DNA of 62,560 nucleotides. Source: an uncultured Draconibacterium sp. GTDB taxonomy: Bacteria; Bacteroidota; Bacteroidia; Bacteroidales; FEN-979. The DNA is taken from the NCBI GenBank assembly GCA_964387205.1, contig CAYLVY010000003.1:17006-79565 (forward strand), read 5' to 3'. The position numbers and the translations under genes are program-made. Below the pieces are notes generated by a model. It was not told the origin of the DNA and made no database searches. It saw only the letters and a program-made list of their open reading frames with translations. This document shows, one piece after another, positions 1 through 60,911 of this stretch; position 1 is the stretch's first letter; the number at the start of each line of letters is the position of its first letter.

Positions 1-8
1 TATATTTG
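1..8 (+). promoter_or_regulatory. Candidate Bacteroidetes -7 promoter box (TATATTTG) for the polysaccharide locus
   Basis: Exact match to TAnnTTTG, 27 nt upstream of the wza ATG at 35. The window edge prevents checking for a -33 element. Confidence 0.35.
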
Positions 9-34
9 TTCCACACTAACCTGAAAACTGACCT

Positions 35-844
35 ATGACAGCCCGTTTCACAACATCCGGCTATCCTTTCAAGCTGCCGCTGATGATCGTGGCCGTCGCT
101 ACGGCACTGCTCTCCTCCTGTATTCCACAGAAGAACCTCCTGCTGATGCAGTATGACAAGCTGATTGACAGCACCTATGCCACCACTTTCATGGGCAGGA
201 CCTTCACCGATTCGGTGTACAGGCTTCAACCCAACGACTATGTATATATCAGCGTGCTGTCGGTCGAAAAACCGATCACGCAGATTGTGGAACCACTCGC
301 CGGTGTGAATTATCTCAACAATGAAAACCAGGCGCTGGTCGGATATCATGTGTATGATGACGGGACGATCTATTTTCCCTATATGGGCCCGATCCACATC
401 AGCGGTCTGACCATACGGGAAGCGAGGGATACCCTCAGGGCACAGATTTCCAAGCTTGTCGGGCGTTGCCGGGTGGAGATATTTCTGATCAATAACACCA
501 TCTTTATGCTGGGTGAGTTCAATAAACAGGGAGTATATAACATGACCCGGAACAAATTGGGGATTTACGAAGCCATTACTCTTGCCTCGGGGCTTACCGA
601 TTATGCGAAACGAAGGGCCATCAAGGTTCTCCGCATCGAGAACGGAGTCAGGAAGATGTATGTGGTGGATGTTAAAAGCGGAGACCAGATCGGCAGGAAC
701 ATGTTTTTCGTCTATCCGAATGATGTGATCTATGCCGAACCCATGAAAGCGAAATCGATAGGCATCACGCCGACTTTTTCGCTTGCGGTTCTCTCCACTA
801 TCGTCTCCTTTGCTTTGCTGGTCGCTACTTTATCAAAACAATAG
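35..844 (+). CDS. wza: Outer-membrane polysaccharide export lipoprotein (Wza/OPX family)
   Basis: 269-aa ORF with a signal peptide and lipobox (LLSSC). Poly_export-type motif YRLQPNDYVYISV. A Wzc-like gene follows immediately. Confidence 0.8.
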   Translation: MTARFTTSGYPFKLPLMIVAVATALLSSCIPQKNLLLMQYDKLIDSTYATTFMGRTFTDSVYRLQPNDYVYISVLSVEKPITQIVEPLAGVNYLNNENQALVGYHVYDDGTIYFPYMGPIHISGLTIREARDTLRAQISKLVGRCRVEIFLINNTIFMLGEFNKQGVYNMTRNKLGIYEAITLASGLTDYAKRRAIKVLRIENGVRKMYVVDVKSGDQIGRNMFFVYPNDVIYAEPMKAKSIGITPTFSLAVLSTIVSFALLVATLSKQ

Positions 845-847
845 CAC

Positions 848-3217
848 GTGGGAAAAGCAAGTTCACACCTGGCCGGGGGGATCGATTTCAGGCGGATACT
901 CACCAAGTACCTTAAGAACTGGTATCTTTTCGCGATTGCCATGGGCGCTGCCTACTGGTATGCAACGGTGCAGAACCGGTATGTAGTTCCGGTATACAGC
1001 CTGTCCACTTCGGTACTGATCGAAGACAAGAGCAATAAGTCGGTGCTCGACCAGCGCGGCTCTATTTCTGCCGATCCTTTGTTTCTGAACACCAAACTGA
1101 TCGATAACCAGATAGCCCTGCTCAAGTCGTTTGCCCAGATCAGGCTGATTATTGAAAACCTCGATTTCGAGGTCTCCTATTTTGCCAAAGGGAAGTATAT
1201 CTGGGAGGAAATTTATAAGCGTTCCCCTTTTGAAGTGAAGACCGACTCAGGTCATGCGCAGATCCGGTCGGCCCGGTTCAACGTTCAGATACTGGACGGT
1301 GAAAAGTTCAGGATCTGGTCGGAAAAGATCGGAGCCTTCAGCAATCCCCGGACATTGCGGTTCGGCGAACAGGTTGCGGGAAAGGATTATTCTTTCACCC
1401 TCAGGCTGAAAGAGGGGATCAACGCGGCTGATTATGCGGCTCAGGAATATGGCTTTGAGATCAATGACATATCGCAGTTAACCAGCCAGTACCGGAACAA
1501 GACCAACATATCTTCGGAAAAGGGCACTTCGGTGGTGATCATCTCCTCTTCGGGCCCCAACAAGGATAAAGAGAAAGACTACCTGAACGAACTGACGCGC
1601 ATGTTCCTGATCACCAACCTGGAGAAAAAGAACCGGATACTGACCAGTACCATCCGCTTTATCGATAAACAGATCGCCGAGATGGGGACGGAACTGGATT
1701 CTGCGGAATCAAAGTTGGAGGATTTTCGCAAAGACAACAAGTTCATGCAGTTATCAGCCAAGGCAGCCATGTTGTTGAATGAACTCAGGGATCTTTCCAA
1801 AGAGAAATCGAACCTGATCGCCGACCGGAAATATTACGAGTATCTGCTCGATTATCTGAAAACCCACGATTCTTTCGAAGATGTTGTGATGCCATCAACG
1901 GTCGGTCTTAGTCTGCCCCTCTTTTCCGACCTGGTGCTGAAACTCTCGACCGTATCGCTGGAGCGCGAAGACCTGATCGCCAATTCATCGCGCCAAAATC
2001 CTTACATCCAGGTTCTGGAAGAGCAGATATCGAATATGAAGACCGCGCTTATCGAGAACATGAACAGTATCATCAGTACGACAACCCTGAAGATCGAAGA
2101 CCTGGAGGAGAGAATCCTGCAGAAGGAGGCCGATTTCGCGCTCCTGCCGGGGATAGAACGCCAGTACCTCGAGATAGAGCGGAAATACAATGTGTTCAAC
2201 AATCTTTATGATTTTCTGTTGCGCAGGAAGTCGGAAGTGGAGATCCAGCGGGCGGGCAACACCTCCGACCATGAGATCGTGGATTTCGCAGGCAGCACGG
2301 GGATCAGCAAGGTGTCGGCCAGCCCTACCACGGCCTATGTCAATGCCATGATCTGGGCGATCCTGATCCCTGCAGTGTTTCTCTTTCTGGTGGTGATCCT
2401 CAACAACCGGATCATGTCGCGGGACGATATCGAATCGCTGACCGACCTGCCTGTCGTGGGGGCACTGATAAGGAATACCGACAAGCGGGGCGGCAAGTTG
2501 CTGCTCAGCGCGAACTCTTTATTCAATGAGACCCTTCGCATTATCAAGATAAAACTCAACCTCGACCCCCGGAAAGGGGAGCAGGTGGTGTTGGTCACAT
2601 CAGCCAGTGCGGAGGATGGGAAAACATTCGTGGCAAAGAACCTTGCTTCGGTTTACGCGATGGCAGGTAAACGCACGCTTTTGCTTGATTTCGACCTTCA
2701 GCATCCCGGGATCGCGGAACATTTCGGGCTGGATGATAATGCCGGGGTGACCAATTTCCTGATCAATGATATCGGGGTAGAGGACGTGATCCGCAGGACC
2801 TTCACCAAAAACCTTGACCTCCTGACATCGGGGCCCATTCCTCCCAACCCGGATGAACTGATCGAATCGGAGAAGACCCATCAGTTGTTTGCCCATTTAA
2901 GGCGCCGGTATGAATACATCATCATGGATACACCCCCTATCGGTTTTGTGGGAGATGCCTACCTGCTCGACCGATATTCCGACACTACCCTCTTTGTGGT
3001 GCGGTATAACCATACCACCAAGAAACACTTTGCCGCCGCCCTGTCGGAAGCCACCGAAAACCACATGAAAAAGGTCAATATTGTATTTACCGATGTGCGA
3101 CAAAAGATCAGGATCGGCGATGTCGCTACAGTGACGGAAGGCAAAAAAATTGCTGCTCCCCTGCGCGCTGCCATAGCGGTGAGGAGATCCCTGATCAACA
3201 TGATCCGAAAATTCTGA
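848..3217 (+). CDS. wzc: Polysaccharide co-polymerase / BY-kinase-like protein (Wzc/GumC family) without a C-terminal Tyr cluster
   Basis: GTG start 3 nt after the wza stop. Two TM segments flank a long coiled-coil periplasmic domain. The C-terminal P-loop domain has Walker A SASAEDGKT, A' LLLDFDLQHP and B YIIMDTPP. The tail contains no tyrosines. Confidence 0.8.
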   Translation: MGKASSHLAGGIDFRRILTKYLKNWYLFAIAMGAAYWYATVQNRYVVPVYSLSTSVLIEDKSNKSVLDQRGSISADPLFLNTKLIDNQIALLKSFAQIRLIIENLDFEVSYFAKGKYIWEEIYKRSPFEVKTDSGHAQIRSARFNVQILDGEKFRIWSEKIGAFSNPRTLRFGEQVAGKDYSFTLRLKEGINAADYAAQEYGFEINDISQLTSQYRNKTNISSEKGTSVVIISSSGPNKDKEKDYLNELTRMFLITNLEKKNRILTSTIRFIDKQIAEMGTELDSAESKLEDFRKDNKFMQLSAKAAMLLNELRDLSKEKSNLIADRKYYEYLLDYLKTHDSFEDVVMPSTVGLSLPLFSDLVLKLSTVSLEREDLIANSSRQNPYIQVLEEQISNMKTALIENMNSIISTTTLKIEDLEERILQKEADFALLPGIERQYLEIERKYNVFNNLYDFLLRRKSEVEIQRAGNTSDHEIVDFAGSTGISKVSASPTTAYVNAMIWAILIPAVFLFLVVILNNRIMSRDDIESLTDLPVVGALIRNTDKRGGKLLLSANSLFNETLRIIKIKLNLDPRKGEQVVLVTSASAEDGKTFVAKNLASVYAMAGKRTLLLDFDLQHPGIAEHFGLDDNAGVTNFLINDIGVEDVIRRTFTKNLDLLTSGPIPPNPDELIESEKTHQLFAHLRRRYEYIIMDTPPIGFVGDAYLLDRYSDTTLFVVRYNHTTKKHFAAALSEATENHMKKVNIVFTDVRQKIRIGDVATVTEGKKIAAPLRAAIAVRRSLINMIRKF

Positions 3218-3249
3218 ATTTATGAACCAAAACCAATAACCCCGCTGCT

Positions 3250-6224: not shown

Positions 6225-6274
6225 GACCGTACGATGATTTGTTCTGAATATAAATCAACTGAAAATATAGTTCC

Positions 6275-8565: not shown

Positions 8566-8580
8566 TGGTGCTGAACAACT

Positions 8581-10599: not shown

Positions 10600-10603
10600 T
10601 CGT

Positions 10604-11494: not shown

Positions 11495-11504
11495 TTTTAC
11501 GGTT

Positions 11505-13263: not shown

Positions 13264-13270
13264 TATTAAC

Positions 13271-16970: not shown

Positions 16971-16979
16971 AATCATACC

Positions 16980-18389: not shown

Positions 18390-19240
18390 CAGCGATCAGG
18401 CACGATAACCCGCACCTGATCGTCCTTCCGGCCTTCAACGAAGCGCAACAGATCGGGAAGCTGCTGGAAAAACTGATCGGCTTCCGTGACCATGTGCTGG
18501 TCGTGGATGATGGCAGTACCGATCGCACCCCGGAAATCATCCGAATGGCAGGATTCCGTTATTGCACCCATAATTCCCGGAAAGGGTTGCAGGCTGTATA
18601 TCTCACCGCGGAATCTTATGCCGCGGAACACGGGTATGCACGCATTGTGTCGATGGATGCCGACGGACAACATGATCCGGCTTTTCTGGATGGTTTTATT
18701 CATGGATACGTTAGTGATTATATGATCATCGGGAACCGCTTCCGCCATCCCGAAACGGTTCCTCCGTCCAAACTCGCTTCCAACCTCTTTGCCGTGCTGC
18801 TTTTCAGAGAGAAGCTCAACATCCGATTACCCGATGTAGCCTGCGGTTTCCGAAGCTGGCCGGCGGGAACCATCACGGCTATGACCCGCAAGGCAGATGA
18901 AGGATTCAGCGCATTTGAGATCATCTACCGGATGATCGTCAGCCACGCCATGGCGGGGAAAGGATTCGGAAATGTAGAAATTCCCGCCACCTATCTGCCC
19001 GGTCAGCCATTAACCACCCGGGCCACCGAGATCAAAGGGCTGCTCAGGAGTATCCCGGACTTTGAAAATGATGGTGACATTCCCGGAATCCTCGAATGTC
19101 TGGAACATCACCATGATTTTACCATATCTTTGCAGGGTTTTCACTTTATCGCCGGCCAGGCAGGTAATGACACCTGGCTTTTTCAGACCGATACGGAGAA
19201 GGCCATTGAATTTTTCCGCTTTGCGGGAACTGCAAAATAG
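18386..19240 (+). CDS. GT2 polyprenyl-phosphate glycosyltransferase-like (Dpm1/GtrB-like, soluble form)
   Basis: LPAFNEAQQIGKLL...VVDDGSTDRT...MDADGQHDP pattern. ATGA overlap with the upstream membrane protein. Confidence 0.7.
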   Translation: MTAIRHDNPHLIVLPAFNEAQQIGKLLEKLIGFRDHVLVVDDGSTDRTPEIIRMAGFRYCTHNSRKGLQAVYLTAESYAAEHGYARIVSMDADGQHDPAFLDGFIHGYVSDYMIIGNRFRHPETVPPSKLASNLFAVLLFREKLNIRLPDVACGFRSWPAGTITAMTRKADEGFSAFEIIYRMIVSHAMAGKGFGNVEIPATYLPGQPLTTRATEIKGLLRSIPDFENDGDIPGILECLEHHHDFTISLQGFHFIAGQAGNDTWLFQTDTEKAIEFFRFAGTAK

Positions 19241-19245
19241 AAGTC

Positions 19246-19932
19246 ATGTTTGAAAATATCGATAAACATCCTGCCGGTGAAACCATTCCATACCATGTGG
19301 GGATCATCCCCGACGGAGGACGGCGATGGGCAAAGGCACAGGGGGTTACCCTGGAGGAGGCTTACCTGCAAACCCGCCTGAGACTGCAGAAACTGACAGA
19401 GCGGTTGATTTACACTTCCGTGAAGGAGGTTTCGGTCTATCTCTCCAGTATTCAGAATTTCAGGCGCGGACCGGAAGATTTGATCCCTTATCTGAAATCG
19501 CTGGAATCATCATTCTCACAGGAGATCCCATTGATGGCCCTTCATCTTGACCTGAAAATAGTTATGGCCGGCGACCGGGACATCCTACCTTCCGGATTGA
19601 GACAATTGATCGAAAAGGTTGAAAATGAATCTGCAGGTCGTCAGAAAGCCCGGCTGAATCTTCTTATTGCCTACGACCCGTGGGAAGAACTCGCGGAAGC
19701 AATGAACCGCTGCCCGGACCCAACACGGCTCGCCGGTTATCTGCAGGTTTCCACCCCCGTGGACCTGATCATCCGGACCGGAGGGGCGCCGCTGCTCAGC
19801 AACTTTCTTCCCCTGCAATCGGGTTTTGCAAGGTTTTACTGCGTTGATAAACTTTTCAACGATTTCACCGCCGAAGATCTTCAGGACATACTCCATACCT
19901 TTTCCGGGTTGAACCGGCAGTTCGGAACGTGA
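19246..19932 (+). CDS. Divergent cis-prenyltransferase (undecaprenyl-diphosphate-synthase family paralog)
   Basis: HVGIIPDGGRRWA versus canonical HVAIIMDGNGRWA. SSIQNFRRGPEDL versus FSTENWxRPxxEV. IIRTGGAPLLSNFLPLQ versus IRTSGExRxSNFLxWQ. C-terminal NRQFG. Confidence 0.75.
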   Translation: MFENIDKHPAGETIPYHVGIIPDGGRRWAKAQGVTLEEAYLQTRLRLQKLTERLIYTSVKEVSVYLSSIQNFRRGPEDLIPYLKSLESSFSQEIPLMALHLDLKIVMAGDRDILPSGLRQLIEKVENESAGRQKARLNLLIAYDPWEELAEAMNRCPDPTRLAGYLQVSTPVDLIIRTGGAPLLSNFLPLQSGFARFYCVDKLFNDFTAEDLQDILHTFSGLNRQFGT

Positions 19933-19934
19933 GG

Positions 19935-20024
19935 CAGCCAGACCTTCCAGGTTTTGAAAACCCGGAAGGTCTTATTCCTCAGCCAGACCTTCCAGGTTTT
20001 GAAAACCTGGAAGGTCTTATTCCC
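19935..20024. repeat. Two tandem 45-bp units, each containing an 11-14 bp palindromic hairpin. Probable bidirectional terminator or REP-like element.
   Basis: The unit is CAGCCAGACCTTCCAGGTTTTGAAAACC[C/T]GGAAGGTCTTATTCC[T/C]. Copy 2 (stem 19986-19996 / 20006-20016) is a perfect palindrome; copy 1 has one stem mismatch. The repeat fills the 95-nt convergent gap between the prenyltransferase and the TonB receptor. Confidence 0.85.
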
Positions 20025-26190: not shown

Positions 26191-26229
26191 AAAATTCCGT
26201 ACTGAGCTATAAGCTCAGCACGGAATTTT
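26191..26229 (-). terminator. Rho-independent terminator overlapping the CBM48 stop codon
   Basis: An 18-bp stem (one G-U pair on the minus-strand RNA) with a 3-nt loop. The stem ends in UUUU followed by UCUGUC. The TAG stop (26207-26209) sits at the loop edge. Confidence 0.6.
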
Positions 26230-26512
26230 CGGAACCGAGGCCGCTGGGGATAAACCCATCAGCCTGAGGGTCGTTTTCCCAATTGTTCCCGTCGATCAGA
26301 TAACGAAACTGGTATTCTTTTCCTGATTCCAGGTCGAGGGTTACTGACCAGGCGCCGGTTTTTGCCTTTTTCAGGGGTGTTTCACCGATCTGCCATGCAT
26401 TAAAATCACCCACCAGGACTATGGATGTGGCATTGTTATAGTGTTCTCCTTCGAGGGAAAATTTCACTTTACAAACAGGTTTTGCCTTTAAAAATTTCTT
26501 TTCGATGCTCAT
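26207..26512 (-). CDS. Stand-alone CBM48 / AMPK-beta-type glycogen-binding domain protein
   Basis: 101 aa. VKFSLEGEHYNNATSIVLVGDFNAWQ...KEYQFRYLIDGNNWENDP matches the E-set/CBM48 pattern. Confidence 0.7.
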   Translation of the reverse strand: MSIEKKFLKAKPVCKVKFSLEGEHYNNATSIVLVGDFNAWQIGETPLKKAKTGAWSVTLDLESGKEYQFRYLIDGNNWENDPQADGFIPSGLGSENSVLSL

Positions 26513-34689: not shown

Positions 34690-36180
34690 TTAGAGTTCCT
34701 TTCTTAACCTGGCCACCGGGATATTCAACTGCATCCTGTATTTGGCAATGGTACGCCGGGCGATGTTATAACCTTTCGACCTCAGGATTTCCACCAACTC
34801 ATCATCCGTGAGCGGATTCGATTTGTCTTCCGCTTCTACAATATCAGAGAGGATCTTTTTGACCTCCCGGGTGGAGATCTCTTCGCCCTCCGTATTGAGC
34901 ATCGCTTCGCTGAAAAAACTTTTGAGGAGCATGGTCCCGTAGGGGGTCTGAACATATTTGCTGTTGGCGACCCTCGAGATGGTGCTGATATCCAGCGAAA
35001 CCATCCCGGCGATATCTTTCAGGATCATCGGGCGAAGTTTGGTCTCATCACCGGTCAGGAAATACTCCTTCTGATAGTCCATAATCGCCTGCATGGTGAC
35101 CAGCAAGGTCTGCTGTCGCTGTCGTATCGCCTCGATAAAGCCCCTGGCGGCATCAATTTTCTGCCGGATAAAGGTGAGCGCTTCATTTTCAGGTGACTTT
35201 TTTCTGGCACTGCCAAACTCATGCATCATGGAAAGATACTCCCTGTTCAGGGTCAGTTCCGGTGTATAACGGTTATTGAGGCTTAATTCGAGTTGACCGT
35301 CATGGTTGCCAATGATAAAATCGGGAACGATATAATGGTTATCCCTTGAAACCTCCGTGATGGCATTCCCCGGTTTGGGATTGAGTTTTTGTATCTCCGA
35401 GATCGTTTCCCGAAGTTCATCCCCGTTGATATTGGCCTTCTGCAATATTTTATCGTAATGTTTTTTACTGAACTCCTCAAAATAAAATCGGATCACCACT
35501 GCGGCCAGGTCGGTGGCATAACTCCTGTCGGCTTTATTATCAAGTTGGATCAGAAGGCACTCCTGAAGACTTCTTGCCGCAATACCGGGAGGATCAAAAG
35601 TTTGTACTATTTTAAGTACTTCGAGTATCTCCTGTTCCGTTGCTTCAATGGCCTGATTAAAAGCAAGATCGTTGCTCAGGGCCGGAATTTCTCGGACCAG
35701 ATATCCCGAATCATCCAGGTTTCCAATGATGGTGGTGGCAATAATATACTGTTTATCGGTGAATTTATGCAATCCGATCTGGCTGATCAGATAATCCTGA
35801 AAACTCACGGCAGATGCGATGGGTATTTCCCGCTGCTCTTCGTCCCTGCTGTAATTCCCGGCATGCAGCCTGTACTCCGGGATATCATCTTCATCAACAT
35901 AATCCTCAAATCCAAACTCATCATCGGGCGAACCCTTATCGGCATTGTCCAGAAAGCCATCTTCATCGGAGTCAATCGATTCGAGGGTTGGTTCATCCTC
36001 CGGTGTATCCATCTCATCACCATCTTCCCTCGAGATCTCCTCCAACGCGGGATTCTCCTCAATCTCCTGCTTGATCCGCTGATCGAGCGAGAGAACGGGT
36101 TCCTGTAAAAGGCGCATGACCAGCACCTGTTGCGGCGACAGTTTTTGTATTAACCGTTGCTGAAGTTTCTGACTTAACAT
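34690..36180 (-). CDS. rpoN: RNA polymerase sigma-54 factor
   Basis: N-terminal MLSQKLQQRLIQKLSPQQ, an acidic linker, a core-binding region, and the C-terminal RpoN box region (ARRTIAKYR). The start is refined to the ATG at 36180. The ORF track starts at 36198. Confidence 0.92.
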   Translation of the reverse strand: MLSQKLQQRLIQKLSPQQVLVMRLLQEPVLSLDQRIKQEIEENPALEEISREDGDEMDTPEDEPTLESIDSDEDGFLDNADKGSPDDEFGFEDYVDEDDIPEYRLHAGNYSRDEEQREIPIASAVSFQDYLISQIGLHKFTDKQYIIATTIIGNLDDSGYLVREIPALSNDLAFNQAIEATEQEILEVLKIVQTFDPPGIAARSLQECLLIQLDNKADRSYATDLAAVVIRFYFEEFSKKHYDKILQKANINGDELRETISEIQKLNPKPGNAITEVSRDNHYIVPDFIIGNHDGQLELSLNNRYTPELTLNREYLSMMHEFGSARKKSPENEALTFIRQKIDAARGFIEAIRQRQQTLLVTMQAIMDYQKEYFLTGDETKLRPMILKDIAGMVSLDISTISRVANSKYVQTPYGTMLLKSFFSEAMLNTEGEEISTREVKKILSDIVEAEDKSNPLTDDELVEILRSKGYNIARRTIAKYRMQLNIPVARLRKEL

Positions 36181-36339: not shown

Positions 36340-37353
36340 ATGAAATCCAGGCTGACGGTCATATCTATCCATCTGCTGACATGGCTTGCGCTGTTGATGA
36401 TACCGCTTCTCTTCATCGATGCCGGACAAGCCAGATGGCGGTTCTTCACGATGAGCTGGTTCGGTCAGCTTCTGATGGCATCCTACTTTTATTACAACTA
36501 CCTTTTCCTGATCCCGCGCTTTCTTCTTAAACGTAGATTGGTGCCCTATATTCTTCTGCTGCTGGCCGGACTGATCGTCATCTGCCTGGCCAATGTCGGT
36601 TACGTCAAGTTTACCTGGGATATGATGGGATGGAAATTCCCGTTCCGATTCTGGAAACATCTCTTTTTCCCCTTGTATCCCTCCTTTCTGGCCTGGGGGA
36701 TCAGCACCGCCATCAGGATCACCAACGAATGGTTCCGCAACGAACGCAGGAAAAAAGAACTTGAAGCCGAAAACCTTCAGTCGGAACTGGCCTTTCTGAA
36801 ATCCCAGATCAACCCGCACTTTCTTTTCAATACCCTGAACAACATATGTTCGCTTGCCAGAAAAAAATCGGATGAAACGGAAAACGCCATCATAACCCTG
36901 TCCGGAATCATGCGTTATATGCTTGAATATTCAGGAGACGAAAAGGTGCCCCTTACCAAAGAGGTGGAGTACCTGCAAAGTTATATAGAGCTGCAAAGGC
37001 TCAGGGTGCCGGAAACTATGACCATTCATTTCTCCGCCGGGGGAAATACCGAAAATGTCATGCTCGAACCGATGCTGCTGATCCCCTTCGTGGAAAATGC
37101 TTTCAAACATGGAATCCGCCTGGAATATCCTTCATCGATCGATATAAACCTCCGGGCCGACCGCCATTCACTGAATTTCTCGGTCATGAACCCCGTCAGC
37201 CCATTCCCTTTTGATACTGAGGCCGGAAGTGGCATCGGACTGAAAAATGTGGCCAGAAGGCTGGAACTTCTTTATCCCGACCGGCACAGCCTCACCATCG
37301 TGAATGATCAGAACCAGTACAAAGCCACCCTTACCCTAAAATTCAAGTCATGA
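36340..37353 (+). CDS. LytS/YehU-family sensor histidine kinase
   Basis: Four or five N-terminal TM helices. His_kinase motif LKSQINPHFLFNTLNNI. HATPase-like region LIPFVENAFKHG and GSGIGLKNV. Confidence 0.88.
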   Translation: MKSRLTVISIHLLTWLALLMIPLLFIDAGQARWRFFTMSWFGQLLMASYFYYNYLFLIPRFLLKRRLVPYILLLLAGLIVICLANVGYVKFTWDMMGWKFPFRFWKHLFFPLYPSFLAWGISTAIRITNEWFRNERRKKELEAENLQSELAFLKSQINPHFLFNTLNNICSLARKKSDETENAIITLSGIMRYMLEYSGDEKVPLTKEVEYLQSYIELQRLRVPETMTIHFSAGGNTENVMLEPMLLIPFVENAFKHGIRLEYPSSIDINLRADRHSLNFSVMNPVSPFPFDTEAGSGIGLKNVARRLELLYPDRHSLTIVNDQNQYKATLTLKFKS

Positions 37354-38087
37354 TCAGATGCATGGCCATTGACGATGAACAACTCGCGCTCGATCTGATC
37401 AGCGACAATATCAGGAAAGTTCCTTTCCTGCATCTGGAAGGATTATGTCATAATGCCATCGAAGCCTTCACTACCCTGCAGCAGAAACAGGTCGATCTGA
37501 TCTTTCTCGATATCCAGATGCCCGCTATCTCCGGATTGCAGTTTTTGAAAACTCTCGTTAACCGGCCCGCCGTGATTATCACCAGCGCTTACGCCAAATA
37601 TGCACTGGACGGATTCGACCTCGACGTGATCGATTACCTCCTGAAACCATACTCTTTCGAAAGGTTTCTTAAAGCTGTCAGCAAAGTCGCTGACCACCTT
37701 GCAGTAAAAGGCCTGACGGAAACGGGCCATCCGGTCAATGCCGGGCTGCCCCAGACATACATCTTTGTGAAATCCGATTACCGCCTGGTCAGGATCAATT
37801 TCGACGATATTCTTTACATCGAAGGGCTCAAGGATTATGTGAAATTTTTTCTTCCGGACCGCACGGTGGTGACCCAGATGAGCATCAAATCCCTGGAAGA
37901 AAAGTTGCCTTCAAGGCAATTTATCAGAATTCACCGCTCCTTTATTGTGGCCTTTAATAAAATCGAATCGATACGCAAACAAAGCATAACCTTGGCTAAC
38001 AGGGAGATACCGGTTGGCGACCAATATCGTGACAATCTCTTTAACCTCATCAGTTCCGATCAATCCCCAAATCCCTATGTTTCGTAA
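37350..38087 (+). CDS. LytTR-family response regulator
   Basis: Receiver domain (AIDDE...DLIFLDIQMP) plus a C-terminal LytTR domain (ILYIEGLKDYVKF...FIRIHRSFIV). ATGA overlap with the kinase gene. Confidence 0.9.
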   Translation: MIRCMAIDDEQLALDLISDNIRKVPFLHLEGLCHNAIEAFTTLQQKQVDLIFLDIQMPAISGLQFLKTLVNRPAVIITSAYAKYALDGFDLDVIDYLLKPYSFERFLKAVSKVADHLAVKGLTETGHPVNAGLPQTYIFVKSDYRLVRINFDDILYIEGLKDYVKFFLPDRTVVTQMSIKSLEEKLPSRQFIRIHRSFIVAFNKIESIRKQSITLANREIPVGDQYRDNLFNLISSDQSPNPYVS

Positions 38088-39417
38088 ACCGTTGTTATTA
38101 AGTATTTTGCTGTTGATATCCGGAATCACGGCCGCACAGACCCGGTTGTGGACTTTCCGCCAGTGCCTCGATACGGCCCTGGTCCGAAATATCACCATCA
38201 ACCAGACCCGGTACAGCAATGAACTCGACAAAGTCCAGCTTGCCCAAACCAAATCGGCACGCATCCCAAGTTTGAATGCCAGCGCGGGAGAGGCGCTGAA
38301 CCTTGGGAAAAATGTCGATCCCACCACCAACACGTTCGTGACTGAAGCCTATCACAGCACCAACATGGGCATCGCGAGCAGCCTCACCCTGTTCAACGGG
38401 TTACAGACCACCAATACGATCCGCCAGCAACGGTTGAATGTGGAAGCAGGGGAGTATGAGACCGGGAAGGTGAAGAATGATATAACCCTTAACATCACCA
38501 CAGGGTATCTCCAGGTATTATTTGCCAAAGAGATCCTGGCTTCGGCAAAAATTCAGGAAGAGGCTACTGCGGCACAGGAGGAGAGAACAGAAAAGTGGGT
38601 CAATGCTGGTAAGGTACCCGAAAACGACCTGCTGCAGATCAGGTCGCAACTTGCCTCCGACAGGCTGGCGGTCATCAATGCCGAAAATCAGCTTGACCTG
38701 TCAAAGGTAACCCTGATGCAACTGATGGAAATACCGGTGACAGCAGGATTTGATGTGGTAACGCCGGAACTTGAACTTTTAGTGGTTGAAGTGCCGCTGT
38801 CCAACGAACAGATATTTGAAAAATCGCTGACGGTCCAGCCACAGATCACGGGCGCCATGCTTCGTTCCAGTGCCTCAGATATGGCGCTGCGGGTTTCCGA
38901 AGGTGCCAGATGGCCCAGGGTTACTTTCGGGGCCAATCTCAATACCAATTTCGCCTCCGGCAGAAAAAAAAGCGCTGTCAATCCCGAAATGTATCCGTTT
39001 TTTGAACAAATATGGGATAATATCGGACAATCCTTCACCATGGGGCTGACTATTCCGGTTCACAGCAACCGTCAGATCAAAAGCAATATCGAGCGGGCAA
39101 AGATCAACCTGGCCACAACAAGGCTCAATGAAATGAACGTGCGGAACACATTGAGGAAAAATGTGGAACAAACCTGGGCCGATGTCAGGGCAGCCCAAAA
39201 AAAATACGATGCGGTCCGGCAGCAGGTTATCGCCATGGAAGCCTCATACCGCAATGCTGAAACGAAGTACGAGGTCGGTGTTATGCATGCCACCGATTTC
39301 CTGATCCAGAAAAACAATTATGAACAGGCAAAATCGAGCCTGATCCAGGCTAAATATGACTACATTTTCAAGCAGAAGATCCTCGGATTCTATCAGGGAA
39401 CTCCCATTGAATTCTGA
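38077..39417 (+). CDS. TolC-family outer-membrane efflux protein
   Basis: Signal peptide (MFRKPLLLSILLL), duplicated OEP repeat pattern and coiled coils. The start is refined to the ATG at 38077. The ORF track begins at 38014. Confidence 0.85.
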   Translation: MFRKPLLLSILLLISGITAAQTRLWTFRQCLDTALVRNITINQTRYSNELDKVQLAQTKSARIPSLNASAGEALNLGKNVDPTTNTFVTEAYHSTNMGIASSLTLFNGLQTTNTIRQQRLNVEAGEYETGKVKNDITLNITTGYLQVLFAKEILASAKIQEEATAAQEERTEKWVNAGKVPENDLLQIRSQLASDRLAVINAENQLDLSKVTLMQLMEIPVTAGFDVVTPELELLVVEVPLSNEQIFEKSLTVQPQITGAMLRSSASDMALRVSEGARWPRVTFGANLNTNFASGRKKSAVNPEMYPFFEQIWDNIGQSFTMGLTIPVHSNRQIKSNIERAKINLATTRLNEMNVRNTLRKNVEQTWADVRAAQKKYDAVRQQVIAMEASYRNAETKYEVGVMHATDFLIQKNNYEQAKSSLIQAKYDYIFKQKILGFYQGTPIEF

Positions 39418-44832: not shown

Positions 44833-45818
44833 CCGGAACCTTGCTCGCCCTGATTACCGCTGTTTTTTTCCCGGGAGTGATCCTGCGGGTGAAAAGCCTG
44901 GCCAGCGGCAGGAAAGGCCCGGGAATTTTACAACCATGGAAAAATATCCTGCTGCTGCTGAGAAAAGGAAGTGTGATCAGTCCCGTCACCAGTTATGTTT
45001 TTCGCCTTGCCCCCGTCATCTGGCTATCCACCGTAGCTACGGCGCTGCTGCTGCTGCCCTTCCCGGGGATCTCATCCCCTTTTGGCTTTGAGGGCGATTT
45101 CGTCCTGATGGCTTACCTGCTCGCCCTTGGAAAATTTCTGTTTATTCTCGGCGCCCTCGATACAGGCAGTAGTTTTGAAGGCATGGGGGCAAATCGGGAA
45201 GCACTGTATTCGATGCTGGCCGAACCCGCCTTCTTCATCCTGTTCGGCACAATGGCCCTGCTGACAGGCCATACCTCCATGCAGTCGATCTTCGAATCAT
45301 TCCGTTTCGCCGGCCATAGTTCTTATATCATAGGATTCATCGCCGTTTACCTGCTGATGCAGATCGCCATGGTCGAGAACAGCCGTATGCCTGTCGATGA
45401 CCCCAAAACACACCTTGAACTGACCATGGTACACGAAGTCATGATCCTCGACCACAGTGGGTTCGACCTGGCGCTGATCCATATCGGTACGCACCTGAAA
45501 TTCGCGCTCTACGGGATGCTGATCGCCAACTTCCTGATCCCGGCCGAAGGGGTGACCATCATCCGCAACGCCGGGATGAACATCACCGGCGCCACCAGCG
45601 GTATTGTAAACCCGGGAACTACCGGCTGGATCATACTCTCTCAGATCCTGGCTTTCCTGACCATTCAGGTGATCTTCGCCTCCATGATCGGCTTTGCCGA
45701 ATCGTTCCGCGCCCGGAAAAAGATGTCCCGCAACCCGCAGTTTATCGTCACACTTGCCTCTGTTGCCCTGGTTGCTTTCGTTCTGGTTGTATTGATGACC
45801 TTTAACATGATCGGATAA
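44829..45818 (+). CDS. NuoH/HycD/HyfC-like membrane subunit
   Basis: About 8 TM helices. The loop RMPVDDPKTHLELTMVHEVMILDHSG corresponds to the RxPFDxxExExEL...EYSG loop of NuoH/HycD. ATGA overlap with the upstream gene. Confidence 0.8.
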   Translation: MTGTLLALITAVFFPGVILRVKSLASGRKGPGILQPWKNILLLLRKGSVISPVTSYVFRLAPVIWLSTVATALLLLPFPGISSPFGFEGDFVLMAYLLALGKFLFILGALDTGSSFEGMGANREALYSMLAEPAFFILFGTMALLTGHTSMQSIFESFRFAGHSSYIIGFIAVYLLMQIAMVENSRMPVDDPKTHLELTMVHEVMILDHSGFDLALIHIGTHLKFALYGMLIANFLIPAEGVTIIRNAGMNITGATSGIVNPGTTGWIILSQILAFLTIQVIFASMIGFAESFRARKKMSRNPQFIVTLASVALVAFVLVVLMTFNMIG

Positions 45819-52439: not shown

Positions 52440-52733
52440 ACGGGATGAAATATTTAAATATCGTTCAGACAAATATAGTGATTTTAAAACAGGGCCGCAT
52501 CTCTTTACCACTAAATGCCATTTCTTAACTAAAGGTATTTCCAGGCATGTTACCTCCTACTGTTAAACAAAAACATGTTTATTTTACACTTATTTGGTAT
52601 TTTAAATTATTATTTTTATTCTTCAGTAAGAATTATTCTTTTTTAATAAATTTACTATCAGTCAGTTATAAGGAAATCTTGTTTCATTCAACTAATTTGT
52701 TACCAAAGTGTTGCAAACAAATACCAAATGACC

Positions 52734-52741
52734 TATATTTG
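52734..52741 (+). promoter_or_regulatory. Candidate -7 promoter box TATATTTG in an AT-rich divergent intergenic region
   Basis: Exact TAnnTTTG match, 38 nt upstream of the ATG at 52779. Confidence 0.4.
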
Positions 52742-52778
52742 TGAATGCATTCACATTCAATTTTCTTAACCTGATGAT

Positions 52779-53696
52779 ATGAAAAACTTTATGCTCTTTC
52801 TGTTGTGCCTGGGACTGGGCACGGCAACGTTGTCTGCCCAGGAGGTGATTGTCACCGATGATCCCGCTTACACCACACCGGCATCCGGTTCCGTACTGGA
52901 TGTGAAATCAACGACAAAAGGGATGATTATCCCACGGATGACGACCGCCCAGCGTACCACCCTGGGAAGTACCACCCCGGCCGACGGCGTGGTGGTCTAT
53001 GATACCGATCTGGCCTCGTTTTACTACTGGGACCACACCGAATGGAAACAAATTGCGGCTTCAGGGCTCAACCTGACCAACTACAAATTCGGGGACGGCA
53101 CCAATTATTCAACATTTGAAGCCGATGGCACCCTCGTTTTTTACGGCGATGCCACTGTTTGGGATGACATCATGATCCCGGGATTCTCGACCAGAAGCAG
53201 TACAAATTCCCCTGACTTTGCAGTTTTTGTTAACGGGACCTATCTGAATTACTTTGCTGATGCAGGTTCCAACAGTGAAAACCAGGTCTTCTTCACGGCC
53301 CAGTTCCCGCATGCATGGGATGGCGGGGAGATCCGGCCCCACATCCACTGGTCGCCGGAAACCGATCCCGGTACAGCCGCCGTTGTCCGGTGGGGGCTGG
53401 AATATACCTGGGCAGAGTATAATCCCACTACACCGGAAACATTTCCGGCCACCACCACCATTTATACCAACGCCTCAACTCCTGCCGGCAGCCAGAAAAA
53501 ACACCTGATCGCTTCCTTTTCCCCCATCACACCTTCCTCCACTCAGGATGGCATCAGCAGCATGATGGTGTGCCGGCTCTTCCGGAACTCGAGCGATGCT
53601 GCTGATACATATAACAGCAAGAGAGCAGGGTTTCTTCAGTTCGACATCCATTACAAGAGAAATACTGAAGGCAGCCGTACCGAATTTATAAAATAA
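52779..53696 (+). CDS. Secreted protein of unknown function
   Basis: Signal peptide (TLSAQE). N-terminal module LDVKSTTKGMIIPRMTTAQRTTL...GVVVYDTDLASFYYWDHTEWKQI. The C-terminal half of about 190 aa is beta-rich. Confidence 0.7.
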   Translation: MKNFMLFLLCLGLGTATLSAQEVIVTDDPAYTTPASGSVLDVKSTTKGMIIPRMTTAQRTTLGSTTPADGVVVYDTDLASFYYWDHTEWKQIAASGLNLTNYKFGDGTNYSTFEADGTLVFYGDATVWDDIMIPGFSTRSSTNSPDFAVFVNGTYLNYFADAGSNSENQVFFTAQFPHAWDGGEIRPHIHWSPETDPGTAAVVRWGLEYTWAEYNPTTPETFPATTTIYTNASTPAGSQKKHLIASFSPITPSSTQDGISSMMVCRLFRNSSDAADTYNSKRAGFLQFDIHYKRNTEGSRTEFIK

Positions 53697-56241: not shown

Positions 56242-57111
56242 ATGGAACGTATTAAAGAAAAATCAACCATGTCGGGCTATATTGCCATCCTGGTTAGCCT
56301 GTTGATGATCGCCCTTGGGGTATGCGGGATGGTCTGGTTCAACCATCTGGTTTCGGGAATTGTGGTCTCGTTGCTCCTGATCCTTGCGGGCGTGTTTATT
56401 ACCGGAGGATTGCTGGTGGTCAACCCGAACGAATCCTCGGTACTGGTGCTGTTTGGCGCTTACAAAGGTACAATCCGCCAAAACGGATTTTTCTGGGTGA
56501 ATCCTTTCTATCACCGGAAGAAAATCTCCCTGAGGGCCCGCAACCTGAACCGTGAACCTATCAAAGTAAATGACAGACTGGGGAACCCGATCATGATCGG
56601 CATCGTGCTGGTATGGCGTGTGGAGGAGACCTTCAAAGCCGCCTTTGAGGTAGATGATTACAGCCATTTTGTGGATATTCAAAGTGAATCGGCCACGCGA
56701 AAACTTGCAGGGCATTATGCTTACGACAACTTCGACGATGAGCAGCAGGAGATCACCCTTCGCTCAGGCGGAGAGGAGGTCAACCACGCCCTGGAGACTG
56801 AATTGTCAGAGCGGCTGGCGATGGCCGGGATCAAGGTGCTCGAAGCGCGGATCAGTTATCTGGCATATGCTTCCGAGATCGCAGGGGCGATGTTGCGCCG
56901 TCAGCAAGCGACTGCGGTAGTAGCGGCCCGTACCAAGATCGTGGAAGGAGCGGTTAGTATGGTAGAACTTGCACTGGATCAGCTCAGTAAAAAGAAAGTG
57001 GTGGCGTTGGACGAAGACAAAAAAGCGACGATGGTAAGCAACCTGATGGTGGTGTTGTGCTCCGACAAGGACACCACTCCGGTGGTGAATACCGGAACCC
57101 TGCATCAATAA
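56242..57111 (+). CDS. SPFH/band-7 (stomatin-prohibitin) domain membrane protein
   Basis: Two N-terminal TM helices, then an SPFH-like core (VNPNESSVLVLFGAYKGTIRQNGFFWVNPF...) and a coiled-coil tail. Confidence 0.75.
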   Translation: MERIKEKSTMSGYIAILVSLLMIALGVCGMVWFNHLVSGIVVSLLLILAGVFITGGLLVVNPNESSVLVLFGAYKGTIRQNGFFWVNPFYHRKKISLRARNLNREPIKVNDRLGNPIMIGIVLVWRVEETFKAAFEVDDYSHFVDIQSESATRKLAGHYAYDNFDDEQQEITLRSGGEEVNHALETELSERLAMAGIKVLEARISYLAYASEIAGAMLRRQQATAVVAARTKIVEGAVSMVELALDQLSKKKVVALDEDKKATMVSNLMVVLCSDKDTTPVVNTGTLHQ

Positions 57112-57116
57112 AGGAT

Positions 57117-57299
57117 ATGGCGGGGAAGAAAGTATTTATGCTGAGGGTCAACCCTGAGGTTTATGAAGCCCTGGAGAAGTGGGCAGCGGATGAATTCAGG
57201 TCGGTCAATGGTCAGATCGAATGGATCCTGGATTCGGCATTGAAACAACACAGGAGGACACCCGGCGAAAAAACAGAAGAGGAGGAGACAAAGCCCTGA
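57117..57299 (+). CDS. Arc/MetJ-type ribbon-helix-helix protein
   Basis: 60 aa. KKVFMLRVNPEVYEALEKWAADEFRSVNGQIEWIL fits an RHH fold. The start is refined to the ATG at 57117. Confidence 0.6.
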   Translation: MAGKKVFMLRVNPEVYEALEKWAADEFRSVNGQIEWILDSALKQHRRTPGEKTEEEETKP

Positions 57300-57323: not shown

Positions 57324-57593
57324 TTACGCTTTGCCAAAGAGGCGCTGTAGGAAGGTCCTGTTCTTTCTGGCTGATTCCTTATCGTCGGAATAATAGCCAT
57401 AGCCATAACCGTAGCCGTAACCCGATCCGTAGCCGTAACCGTAGCCATAGCCATAACCGTAGCCATAACCGTAGCCGTAGCCGTAGGAACTTCTGTCGAG
57501 CCGCACGTCGTTGATGAGGATAGCCAGGTGGGGGAGTCCCCGTGTCTCCATATCGTAGATAATCGAATCGAATATCTGCTTATTGGTATATCC
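57324..57593 (-). pseudogene. C-terminal segment of the second Wzc-like kinase (last kinase strand plus the (YG)n Tyr cluster), cut off by an in-frame TAG
   Basis: It is in the same frame as 57594-59810. It reads GYTNKQIFDSIIYDMETRGLPHLAILINDVRLDRSS(YG)10SG(YG)4YYSDD..., the expected continuation of a BY-kinase after ...LFLAR. Confidence 0.75.
57390..57485 (-). repeat. Imperfect 6-bp microsatellite (TAYGGN)n encoding (YG)10-SG-(YG)4-YY
   Basis: A direct codon-by-codon reading gives 16 Tyr within 32 residues. Confidence 0.9.
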
Positions 57594-59810
57594 CTACCGG
57601 GCGAGGAAGAGCGATGCATCCGCGAGCTTCATCAGCAAAAATGCATCGGTAACCAACCCAACCGGGGGTGTATCGATGATGATGTAATCATATCGCTTCT
57701 TGAGTTCCGTAAACATTTCAACACACCTTTCCGAGGCGATCAGTTCGGCGGGGTTTGGCGGGATGGGTCCCGATACAAGGATATCGAACTGATCCACACC
57801 GGAAGGGAAGATGATATCCTCCAACTTGCTTTTTCCGATGAGATACGAACTGATCCCTTCGGCATTGCTCAGGTCAAAATCCTTATGCAACTTCGGTTTT
57901 CGGAGGTCAAATCCCATCAGCAGGGTCTTTTTGCCGTACATGGCGAAAATGGAGGCCAGGTTGGTCGAGATAAAAGTCTTTCCTGCGCCCACCATATCAG
58001 CAGTGATCAGGATAGTTTGCTGTTCTTTTCCCTGCAGGAGGTAATTCAGGTTGGTACGCACCGAACGGAAGGATTCGGCGAGGGTTGACTTCGGATAATC
58101 CATCACCACCACCTTTCCTTCTTTATCGTTATGGATCACATGTCCGACAATGGGAAGCGGTGTGATTTTTTCAATGTCTTCACGGGCAATGATCTTGTCG
58201 TTAAAATAGTCTTTGCCGAAGATGTAAACCACCGGGATGATCAATCCGAGGATCAGCGCGATGATATAGTTCAGGCTCTTTTTGGGGAATACCGGGGTTT
58301 GACCTTTGATTGTGGCTTCATCCACCACTTCATTGTCGGACAGATTGGCGGCCAGGGTGATCTGTGCTTCCGAACGCTTCTGAAGAAGATAGGTATAAAT
58401 GGCGTCGGTAAGTTTGAATTTTCGTTCGATCCCAAACAGTACCCTTTGGGTTTCCGGCAAGTTATTGATGCGAAGGTTCACCATCTGCACCCGGTTGTTA
58501 ACCTCTTTCAGGGCTATATTATTGGTATTGATAGCGCTTTTGACATTTTCATACAGTGCGTTCTTGGTAGTGGCGATCTGCAGGTCAAGGGAGATCAGCC
58601 CGGGATTTTTCTCCTTGGAGTATTGCGCCATATCGGTGCGTTTCATGTACAACTCCGTCAGTTTCCGGGTAAGGTCATTCAGGATAACATTATCGATTCC
58701 CATGGTAGCCGGCACGATCAGTTCGTCCAGTTTCTGGTTTTGCTCAATGTACTCCTTCATGTTCTGGAGGTACTTCGACCTAACCATCAGGGTAGCCTTT
58801 TCATCCTGCAGCTCCATCATCTTTTCGAATACCGAACGTGCTTCGTCATCAAGGTTCATGATCTCTTTATTAGTCCTGAACTGCATCAGGGCCCTCTCGG
58901 AAGCATCGAGTGAATCGGAAATGCCCTGCAACTCTCCATCGATAAAGCTGATCGTACGGGTAGCCACCAGGTTCTTTTTTTCCAGGCCTTTGGCCATATA
59001 TTCGCGGCAGAGGGTATTCAGAAAGTCGGCCAGTTTATGGACATTACCACCTTTAAGTTTGATCTCCACGATAGAGGCTTCACGGTTGATGGGTTCTACG
59101 GTGAAAGCCTTATACTGGGATGCTAGCGCATCATAATCGTTCAAAATGAAATAGAATGTCTGGTTCAGGTCCTCCTCAGGGTTAAAATTTTCGTTCAGCA
59201 ACAGGGTAAAACGGTATCCGCCCGATTGAACAACCTGCCCGAATTTAAAGGTTTCATTGATCTGAATCTTGGCTTTTTTACCCTCAGGGGCCTTCTTCTC
59301 ATTGAAAATGTAGAAACCCACCTCCTCTCCGTCGGCAGTCAGTGAGTAGTGGTCACGTGAGAGGATGGTCAGGTAAAACCGCAAGCCTACCGGCTGAGGG
59401 AATGAACTGTCGAACGAAACGACAAAAGGGCAGTCTTTATATAGTTCCGAGGTGACAAAATTCGACTCCCGGAAATAACTGACTTCAAATCCCAGTTTTG
59501 TGACCGTACGATAGGTCAGTGCCTGAGAGGTAAGGATCCCGATCTCGTTTTGCAGGTTCTGCTGATTGTTCATCAGGCCGATCCCCAGAAGGGCGGACGG
59601 GTCGAGTTTATTTTCAGACTTATCCTTGACCAGGAGCGTGGCTTTAACCTCGTAGACCGGTTTGGTATATTTGTTGAACACAAAGGCGAGAACCAGCGCT
59701 ATGAAAATGGTGATGGCAAAGAAATACCAGTAACGGTATATTTTAAAAAGCAGCACTTTATAATCAATGGACTGATCCTGCTGATTGAAATCCTGAAGAT
59801 GGTCGTTCAC
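57594..59810 (-). CDS. wzc: Wzc/GumC-family polysaccharide co-polymerase / BY-kinase (truncated at an in-frame TAG)
   Basis: 738 aa. Two TM helices and a coiled-coil periplasmic domain. Walker A ADMVGAGKT, A' LLMGFDLRKP and B IIIDTPPVG. Ends ...ADASLFLAR-TAG (57594-57596). Confidence 0.85.
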   Translation of the reverse strand: MNDHLQDFNQQDQSIDYKVLLFKIYRYWYFFAITIFIALVLAFVFNKYTKPVYEVKATLLVKDKSENKLDPSALLGIGLMNNQQNLQNEIGILTSQALTYRTVTKLGFEVSYFRESNFVTSELYKDCPFVVSFDSSFPQPVGLRFYLTILSRDHYSLTADGEEVGFYIFNEKKAPEGKKAKIQINETFKFGQVVQSGGYRFTLLLNENFNPEEDLNQTFYFILNDYDALASQYKAFTVEPINREASIVEIKLKGGNVHKLADFLNTLCREYMAKGLEKKNLVATRTISFIDGELQGISDSLDASERALMQFRTNKEIMNLDDEARSVFEKMMELQDEKATLMVRSKYLQNMKEYIEQNQKLDELIVPATMGIDNVILNDLTRKLTELYMKRTDMAQYSKEKNPGLISLDLQIATTKNALYENVKSAINTNNIALKEVNNRVQMVNLRINNLPETQRVLFGIERKFKLTDAIYTYLLQKRSEAQITLAANLSDNEVVDEATIKGQTPVFPKKSLNYIIALILGLIIPVVYIFGKDYFNDKIIAREDIEKITPLPIVGHVIHNDKEGKVVVMDYPKSTLAESFRSVRTNLNYLLQGKEQQTILITADMVGAGKTFISTNLASIFAMYGKKTLLMGFDLRKPKLHKDFDLSNAEGISSYLIGKSKLEDIIFPSGVDQFDILVSGPIPPNPAELIASERCVEMFTELKKRYDYIIIDTPPVGLVTDAFLLMKLADASLFLAR

Positions 59811-59818
59811 GGGAGAAT

Positions 59819-60607
59819 CTATTTGAAATAATTAATGAGCAGTAGTGTGGTGGAAACGGAGGACAATACGATAGCCCATGGGAAGGTGGATCCCAGCCCC
59901 CAGCGTTTGTACCCCAATGGGGGAACATAGAGGATATCATTGGGCTGCAGATAGTAATAGGGGGAATAGAGGATTTCATGCCGGTTAAGGTCAAGGTTGA
60001 TTACAACGGAACCCTCTTTGGTCTTCCTCACCAGCGCCACTTTACCACGGTTGGCAAATTCACTCATATCACCGGCCTGGGCAATCGCCTGGAAAATGTT
60101 GACCTGATTCTGATAAAAGGTCAGTTCCCCGGGCCGTCCAACCTCCCCCATCACGGTTACCTTGAAATTGACCAGTTTCACCACCACCGCAACCTCTTTC
60201 ATATATTCACTTACCAGTTTTTGGATCAATTCATTGACCTCACCAATGGTCTTTCCTGCAACCAACACTTTCCCGATGATCGGAAACTCGATATGGCCAT
60301 TATCATCCACCGAATAACTGTTGAGATAAATGGAGGCATCATTGGCATAGTCGTTGTATGACCCGCCTGAAACACTTTGCTTGTTGAAATACAAAGATGC
60401 ATTGGGGTCCAGAGAGTAGACCCGGATATATAAATTATCCCTGACCTGGATGATATAATTCTTGTCATTCTGAAGCGATGGGGCAAGGGTGGTATCCCCT
60501 GCCACCTGTTTCTGAAGGTATTTGATCTTTTTTTGCGGAACACAGGAAGAAAACACAACCAGTCCAGTCATGAGAAGTAGTGCCAGCCTGAGCATCAGAT
60601 ATTTCAT
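59819..60607 (-). CDS. wza: Outer-membrane polysaccharide export lipoprotein (Wza/OPX family), second copy
   Basis: Lipobox VVFSSC. YIIQVRDNLYIRVYS Poly_export motif and an SLBB-like region. The start is refined to the ATG at 60607. The ORF track begins at 60694. Confidence 0.8.
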   Translation of the reverse strand: MKYLMLRLALLLMTGLVVFSSCVPQKKIKYLQKQVAGDTTLAPSLQNDKNYIIQVRDNLYIRVYSLDPNASLYFNKQSVSGGSYNDYANDASIYLNSYSVDDNGHIEFPIIGKVLVAGKTIGEVNELIQKLVSEYMKEVAVVVKLVNFKVTVMGEVGRPGELTFYQNQVNIFQAIAQAGDMSEFANRGKVALVRKTKEGSVVINLDLNRHEILYSPYYYLQPNDILYVPPLGYKRWGLGSTFPWAIVLSSVSTTLLLINYFK

Positions 60608-60626
60608 AGTGGTTGAAATTGAGGGG

Positions 60627-60634
60627 CAAAGGTA
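60627..60634 (-). promoter_or_regulatory. Candidate -7 box (TACCTTTG on the minus strand) upstream of the second wza
   Basis: The plus strand reads CAAAGGTA, an exact TAnnTTTG on the minus strand. It lies 20 nt upstream of the ATG at 60607. Confidence 0.35.
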
Positions 60635-60911
60635 CGAAAAAACTCTTGTGAAAGGATTTACCGGGACAACATAAACCATCTTATTGATTTTCAATTTATC
60701 TCATTTGACAACCCGCTGTTTTTCTGTAGTTTAGAATAGCACAGAATCACCATGTTCATGCAGATCACGTGAATACCAGGGTGATCACTTTCTGATTTTT
60801 TTGGATACATTAAAGTCGTGAACCTGACATTACTCATCAGAACCCCGGTGCATTCCAGACAGTCCATCGGCCATTGTTTGTCTCACGGCAAAACAGGTCC
60901 GATTGTCAGGA

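Follow-up and report, generated by a model that had tools for sequence, protein, structure and literature searches.

In Escherichia coli Wzc, a tyrosine kinase of the bacterial kind (BY-kinase), the tyrosine-rich tail enters the adjacent subunit's active site and holds the octamer together, and polymerisation requires autophosphorylation of this tail (PMC8285477). In Klebsiella, loss of the capsule is known to arise through wzc alleles with a premature stop or a frameshift (PMC9376106). Here we describe wzc2, the second of two wzc genes in a stretch of 62,560 nucleotides from an uncultured Draconibacterium sp. (GenBank assembly GCA_964387205.1, contig CAYLVY010000003.1, positions 17,006 to 79,565; this whole stretch is called the window below), in which an in-frame TAG cuts the kinase domain short of its last segment and its Tyr-rich tail. 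Comparison with orthologs and with contigs of the same species demonstrates that the TAG is neither a feature of the gene family nor one of the species, and gives no support to a recoding signal or an evolved split kinase. The reading that we favour, to which we give slightly less than even odds (roughly 0.47), is that wzc2 is a normal, conserved Wzc-type (PCP-2a) BY-kinase gene that carries a private, unselected and real lesion in this one genome record.

The gene lies on the minus strand, where its frame reads ...DASLFLAR, the TAG at 57594-57596, and then GYTNKQIFDSIIYDMETRGLPHLAILINDVRLDRSS, a (YG)n stretch with 16 Tyr and ...FGKA before a TAA at 57324-57326. The open reading frame (ORF) and its stop are as described in an earlier interpretation made from the letters alone (hereafter the sequence-only reading); the read-through product, which was given there as ~827 aa, is 828 aa by our computation. 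The features of the gene and of its upstream neighbour are listed here, the three Walker motifs being motif readings of the translation.

57594..59810, minus strand: wzc2 5′ ORF, 738 codons plus TAG with a GTG start at 59810, encoding the Wzz/PCP periplasmic part, GNVR, two transmembrane (TM) segments and the kinase domain up to ...LFLAR
57594..57596, minus strand: in-frame TAG, codon 739; the ancestral codon is CAG (Gln), from conspecific contigs and orthologs
57324..57593, minus strand: in-frame remainder of wzc2, 89 codons plus TAA, encoding the last helix, the last β-strand (LPHLAILINDV) and the Tyr-rich tail
57324..57551, minus strand: 75-codon ORF from an internal ATG (codon 754), a hypothetical trans-acting tail peptide; orthologs have Met, Ile or Leu at codon 754
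57390..57486, minus strand: (TAYGGY)n tandem repeat encoding the (YG)n tail, with 16 Tyr between residues 771 and 828
57975..57992, minus strand: Walker A, VGAGKT, residues 607-612
57894..57923, minus strand: Walker A′, LLMGFDLRKP, residues 630-639
57663..57686, minus strand: Walker B, YIIIDTPP, residues 709-716
59819..60694, minus strand: wza2, an outer-membrane polysaccharide export gene (Poly_export and SLBB) directly upstream of wzc2; 286 aa in conspecific contigs

In Pfam searches the read-through protein matched Wzz (1.9e-7), GNVR (3.3e-12) and AAA_31 (2.1e-11), and its kinase domain matched the structures of CapB, Etk and Wzc with E values of 1e-45 to 1e-35. In alignments with these same structures, the segment that follows the TAG corresponds to the helix, strand and Tyr cluster at their C-terminus; it can also be aligned to ~150 orthologs. 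The post-TAG frame thus truly continues the gene and is not open by chance, as the sequence-only reading had expected of it. As in other Wzc-type (PCP-2a) BY-kinases, wzc2 combines a Wzz/PCP part and GNVR with Walker A, A′ and B motifs and is linked to an outer-membrane polysaccharide export (OPX) gene, wza. The Tyr cluster lies 3′ of the TAG in this record and is thus not on the kinase polypeptide, but it is on that polypeptide in the 828-aa conspecific genes. The Tyr tail of wzc2, an unusually long and regular run of YG units coded by an imperfect 6-nt tandem repeat, is conserved in the aligned orthologs (L004-L157), where its length varies little.

A protein search returned full-length relatives of wzc2 of 803-863 aa, at ~60% identity, which read ...L(V/A)RQ(N/G)(F/Y)T(H/N)KK... 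across the TAG site. Among 152 orthologous loci codon 739 specifies Gln in 148, His in three and Ala in one, with a stop in none, and CAG is the most frequent codon at this position. The idea that orthologs might end naturally at ...LFLAR with no homologous sequence downstream, which the sequence-only reading had raised against itself, does not hold: the orthologs continue. Single intact ORFs were found at 79 of the 80 loci from GTDB species representatives, where the exception, L034, is on the same contig as L001, and at about 71 of the 74 loci from JGI metagenomes, where only L144 and L155 are clearly broken. This gives a base rate for disrupted wzc copies of ~3% of orthologous loci, with ~97% being single intact ORFs.

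The three closest truncated relatives, which were examined first, are all broken no more than 40 codons from the wzc2 site and have intact tails. L001 (with L034; GCA_023229525.1) has a frameshift at codon 708 on a contig with 1.5x coverage, L002 (ERZ27250208) a TAG at codon 705 (locus positions 8113-8115) and L003, from an assembly in which many genes are split, a frameshift near codon 700. These three loci suggested a recurrent or programmed disruption of wzc, an idea that we rejected as a product of selection bias once the counts given above had been made systematically; the three lesions may be errors or independent null alleles.

In the window, wzc2 retains all 24 of the near-invariant tail positions 3′ of the TAG and, because the downstream frame is otherwise untouched, the lesion is probably recent. 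Upstream of the TAG, seven kinase-domain columns with at least 90% conservation in 79 orthologs are not matched by wzc2 (I577L, I641L, G646D, Q668F, N674Q, M679V and V737A), while the first 560 residues show just one departure from such columns. Relaxed constraint in the kinase domain was considered in view of these deviations and rejected. The intact conspecific gene carries all seven of them too, and they are therefore species traits rather than signs of decay.

Conspecific Logan contigs were found, in several public runs, through flanking Band_7 and DUF5698 proteins that are identical residue for residue, and further look-ups widened the comparison to window positions 19,991-62,560 (~42 kb). 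The identity of these contigs to the window, 99.5-99.9%, places them in the same species. The TAG site is covered in five runs (SRR31774764, SRR35833634, SRR35833627, SRR27676566 and SRR27676563), and in all five the codon is CAG; where the conspecific wzc2 is complete it is called as 828 aa. The sequence-only reading had held that a sense codon on re-sequencing would speak against its stop, and the CAG and the intact gene in contigs from five runs come near to being that observation.

Over the 2,487-nt gene the window differs from the conspecific contigs by nine substitutions, plus at most one single-nucleotide polymorphism (SNP) of the contig's own at codon 130 or 813. All nine fall within one tract of 67 nt, at positions 57530, 57536, 57544, 57557, 57567, 57568, 57578, 57584 and 57596, in which the five conspecific runs are mutually identical. 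The changes are given below on the gene strand, from the ancestral state to that of the window.

57530..57596, minus strand: 67-nt tract with nine record-private substitutions, giving the following codon changes
C>T: Q739*
C>A: H743N
A>C: K745Q
CG>AT (2 nt): A748D
C>T: H752Y
A>C: K756T
A>C: I759L
A>C: N761H

The proposal of a recent nonsense mutation thus survives as a private lesion, but not as a lone point mutation, since the TAG is one of the nine substitutions. None of the eight affected codons is changed silently, and transversions account for seven of the nine substitutions; the full spectrum is A>C four times, C>A twice, G>T once and C>T twice. The conspecific base agrees with the ortholog consensus at each of the nine sites, and so it is the window that carries the derived state. 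As a background we used the 64 sites outside the tract at which the window differs from all overlapping conspecific contigs. The ratio of transitions to transversions is 45:19 in this background and 2:7 in the tract (Fisher p = 0.008), that of synonymous to nonsynonymous codon changes is 41:18 against 0:8 (p = 2.4e-4), and the number of differences per 67 nt is ~0.18 against nine (Poisson P ~5e-13). The derived residues are seen in some ortholog in five of seven cases, where chance would give ~4.3, with no enrichment at variable columns; D748 and Y752 are never present in orthologs. A selection filter acting on the derived residues was rejected on these numbers, which are random-like. From the density of the changes, their spectrum, the 0:8 ratio, the random-like residues and the undecayed sequence downstream, we infer that the tract stems from one recent, unselected local event.

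Searches for the origin of the tract returned neither a donor nor a template. No other 67-mer in the window, on either strand, matches it at 36 or more of 67 positions, and no ortholog has more than three of the nine derived alleles. Neither the 180 fetched loci nor the viral contigs contain the derived 36-mer (an example of a derived k-mer of the tract is ACCAATAAGCAGATATTCGATTCGATTATCTAC), a degenerate DNA pattern around the TAG gave zero matches in metagenome contigs, and a protein search with the derived peptide, a weak test, gave nothing of relevance, its single candidate being at 63% identity. There is no reading frame in which the nine tract changes are silent. A hidden overlapping gene was considered and rejected; the antisense ORF 57528..58088, whose third positions lie opposite the first positions of wzc2, is still altered at four residues.

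If the lesion is real, a single local event would have replaced nine bases within 67 bp in the 3′ part of the kinase domain, one base change among them converting the invariant Gln-739 codon from CAG to TAG. Translation would then end at codon 739 and leave a 738-aa product that retains the periplasmic and TM part and the Walker A, A′ and B motifs, while the last helix and last β-strand of the P-loop fold would be lost along with the entire Tyr-rich tail. The lost tail serves as the substrate of phosphorylation and also straps Wzc octamers together; we therefore predict an allele that is null for kinase cycling, and in this strain the wza2-wzc2 export pair would be switched off. No gene of the same direction lies downstream, and polarity is therefore not an issue for the stop.

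The record has what is expected of a strain-private null allele, namely a disabling change set against intact conspecific and orthologous genes and a remainder of the gene that has not decayed. That the event is real is also favoured by the contig, which is long and otherwise clean, by the natural signature of the other differences from the conspecific contigs and by the lack of indels in the tract. Four points weigh on the other side. Nine substitutions within 67 bp and without an indel are extreme for any documented bacterial mutational process. Changes of the A>C, C>A or G>T kind resemble typical short-read (Illumina) miscalls. With its 67 nt the tract would fit inside a single short read, and ~45 nt separate it from the tandem repeat (57394-57486), in which a public short-read contig (L162) breaks off at 57474. 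Finally, the derived haplotype was found in no other public sequence searched.

All but the first of these points give weight to the strongest alternative, that the tract is a sequencing, assembly or polishing error and that the organism has the intact 828-aa gene. All conspecific contigs have the ancestral tract, and the changes, which include a stop, look unselected in a gene that is intact in ~97% of 152 loci; the transversion-rich spectrum and the short span beside the (TAYGGY)n repeat, where a Logan contig ends, would also fit. An error would, however, sit in a contig of at least 62.5 kb that is otherwise clean, with differences over ~42 kb that are mostly synonymous transitions and include one 1-nt indel. 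Error paths supported by a single read should normally be dropped by assemblers at adequate coverage, and the absence of indels from the tract argues against raw long-read error. The sequence-only reading had listed such an error among its options and the CAG in contigs from five runs keeps it there; we consider it quite possible, and rate it below a real allele.

Short-tract recombination or gene conversion from a diverged copy, for example a wzc fragment that has decayed at another place in the genome or in a different strain, appears improbable. The mosaic identity to the conspecific contigs (99.9% in 50-62 kb compared with 99.6% in 27-42 kb) and the SNP clusters at 45020-45072, 35368-35400 and 39117-39123 suggest that short imports or complex substitutions do occur in the population, and a neutrally decaying donor would account for both the stop and the missing synonymous bias. 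Against this, neither the window, the orthologs, the 180 fetched loci nor the viral contigs yielded a donor at the thresholds given above. The 0:8 ratio together with the stop rules out that a functional allele was imported, and from a decayed donor one would expect the background's excess of transitions, which the tract lacks.

It is very improbable that wzc2 stays functional in spite of the stop, either by UAG readthrough or as a split kinase in which a 75-aa peptide, reinitiated at the ATG at 57551, acts in trans. The intact downstream frame, the in-frame ATG 14 codons past the TAG and the near-cognate insertion of Gln, which would restore the ancestral residue, are what such a reading can draw on, as is the operation of Firmicute BY-kinases as two polypeptides (CapA/CapB, by the PDB matches). 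Nevertheless, the stop occurs in none of the 152 orthologs and in no conspecific contig, and the seven additional missense changes are not expected of a tuned recoding site. TAG is a normal terminator here and ends nine of the 55 long ORFs in the window, including 35..844 and 26207..26512, the two that the sequence-only reading had named as genuine TAG stops. No other gene in the window has an in-frame TAG; further split genes were not seen, same-frame neighbours being separate complete genes or lacking a Pfam match. No tRNA gene was found in the window, which covers 62.5 kb of the genome. Low-level readthrough, another option of the sequence-only reading, is not a needed explanation here. With regard to a split, which the sequence-only reading had offered as an option with the Tyr tail supplied in trans, the break is unconserved and falls within the P-loop kinase fold, after the strand that follows Walker B, rather than at the boundary between modulator and kinase in CapA/CapB. 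The nearest start is the internal codon 754, an ancestral Met position (Ile or Leu in some orthologs) and not a new start. Neither the 738-aa nor the 75-aa product gave a match in exact-product look-ups.

A real and recurrent local hypermutation that rewrites the codons of the last helix in one step, possibly switching wza2-wzc2 off, is another reading to which we give very little credence; its source may be error-prone synthesis beside the (TAYGGY)n repeat or an enzyme-driven mechanism. If true, polysaccharide export in Bacteroidales would be subject to a new type of variation, on/off or diversifying. The least probable reading is targeted hypermutation of the last kinase helix, by a diversity-generating retroelement (DGR) or another enzyme-driven process: the changes are dense, all nonsynonymous, mostly at codon positions 1 and 2 and near the 3′ end of the gene, but only four of the nine ancestral bases are adenine (five are not), no template repeat was found in the window and no reverse transcriptase (RT) among the genes with Pfam annotation on the conspecific contigs, which span 20-62 kb and more, hypervariability is lacking, in that the five runs are identical in the tract and its positions are conserved across the 152 orthologs, and DGR codon design avoids making stops.

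A private null lesion in wzc is of an already known kind, and only the dense tract of nine substitutions is unusual; should it be real, a wild bacterium would have acquired a complex mutation of uncommon density. A real allele and an artefact lead to the same verdict on the finding, and the annotation of this copy of wzc2 should mark it as a pseudogene or a suspect region, the species itself carrying an intact gene. As a lesson of method, an in-frame stop followed by a conserved continuation was settled here by way of conspecific contigs that had been retrieved through identical neighbouring proteins.

The divergence of the window from its conspecifics is mosaic, with ~0.35% (99.6% identity) in 27-42 kb and near zero (99.9%) in 50-62 kb outside the tract, which is typical of a recombining population. 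Other clusters of window-private substitutions are found at 39117-39123 (five changes in 7 nt), 35368-35400, 45020-45072, 46907/46909 and 39797/39799. Most of these changes, in contrast to those of the wzc2 tract, are synonymous or conservative, a pattern that recombination imports or natural multi-nucleotide changes would be expected to leave. The only indel in the ~42 kb compared is an extra T at window position 52625, in the intergenic region 52511-52779, relative to several conspecific contigs. The conspecific Logan contigs all stop at window positions 19991, ~26,590 and ~42,400. For the exopolysaccharide (EPS) locus at 1-19,990 no conspecific contig was recovered, and exact-product look-ups for the window genes 14509-15804 and 37350-38084 gave no match. 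The shared contig ends and the unmatched EPS locus suggest either that this locus is strain-variable or that repeats lie at the junctions.

The first Wzc paralog in the window (848..3217, plus strand), which is preceded by wza1 at 35-844 and heads a large EPS locus rich in glycosyltransferases, has a Tyr at the position equivalent to codon 739 (VVRYNHT). It contains Walker A, A′ and B-like motifs and has zero Tyr in its last 60 residues, that is, no Tyr cluster. To judge from the translations, the Tyr-tailed wzc2 may therefore be the only autophosphorylating copy in the window. A small ribbon-helix-helix (RHH_5-like) ORF at 57057-57299 (plus strand; called at 60 aa on the conspecific contigs) runs towards the 3′ end of wzc2 and sits just after the Band_7/SPFH gene at 56242-57111.

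The closest described system is E. coli Wzc, a PCP-2a BY-kinase (PDB 7NHR, 3LA6 and 9R62) that, like wzc2, has a Wzz/GNVR part, a C-terminal P-loop kinase that carries the three Walker motifs (A, A′ and B) and, at the C-terminus, a cluster of Tyr, and whose gene likewise lies directly downstream of wza. In contrast to E. coli Wzc or CapB, which have 5-7 Tyr in the tail, that of wzc2 is a long, regular (YG)n with 16 Tyr, and, unlike the E. coli gene, the wzc2 ORF in this record is cut at codon 739, before the last helix, strand and tail. The S. aureus pair CapA/CapB (PDB 2VED, 3BFV and 4JLV) is the best match of solved structure to the wzc2 kinase domain, with an E value of ~1e-45. It represents a natural BY-kinase made of two separate proteins, in which the membrane activator is split from a complete kinase domain, whereas the break in wzc2 is inside the kinase fold, unconserved and accompanied by seven missense changes. 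DGR variable regions share with the wzc2 tract a short 3′-end location and dense nonsynonymous substitutions; they differ in that for the wzc2 tract neither a template repeat nor an RT was found, non-adenine bases are changed, strains and species show no hypervariability and a stop has been created. The broken orthologs L001/L034, L002 and L003 are like wzc2 in having assembly-private lesions in this part of the kinase domain and a frame that stays intact downstream, but the positions and types of the lesions are others. The spontaneous wzc null alleles, with a premature stop or a frameshift, by which the capsule was inactivated in Klebsiella evolution experiments resemble wzc2 in that a premature stop arises within a strain while relatives remain intact; they are single mutations or insertion sequence (IS) insertions, whereas the wzc2 stop lies within a cluster of nine substitutions (PMC9376106).

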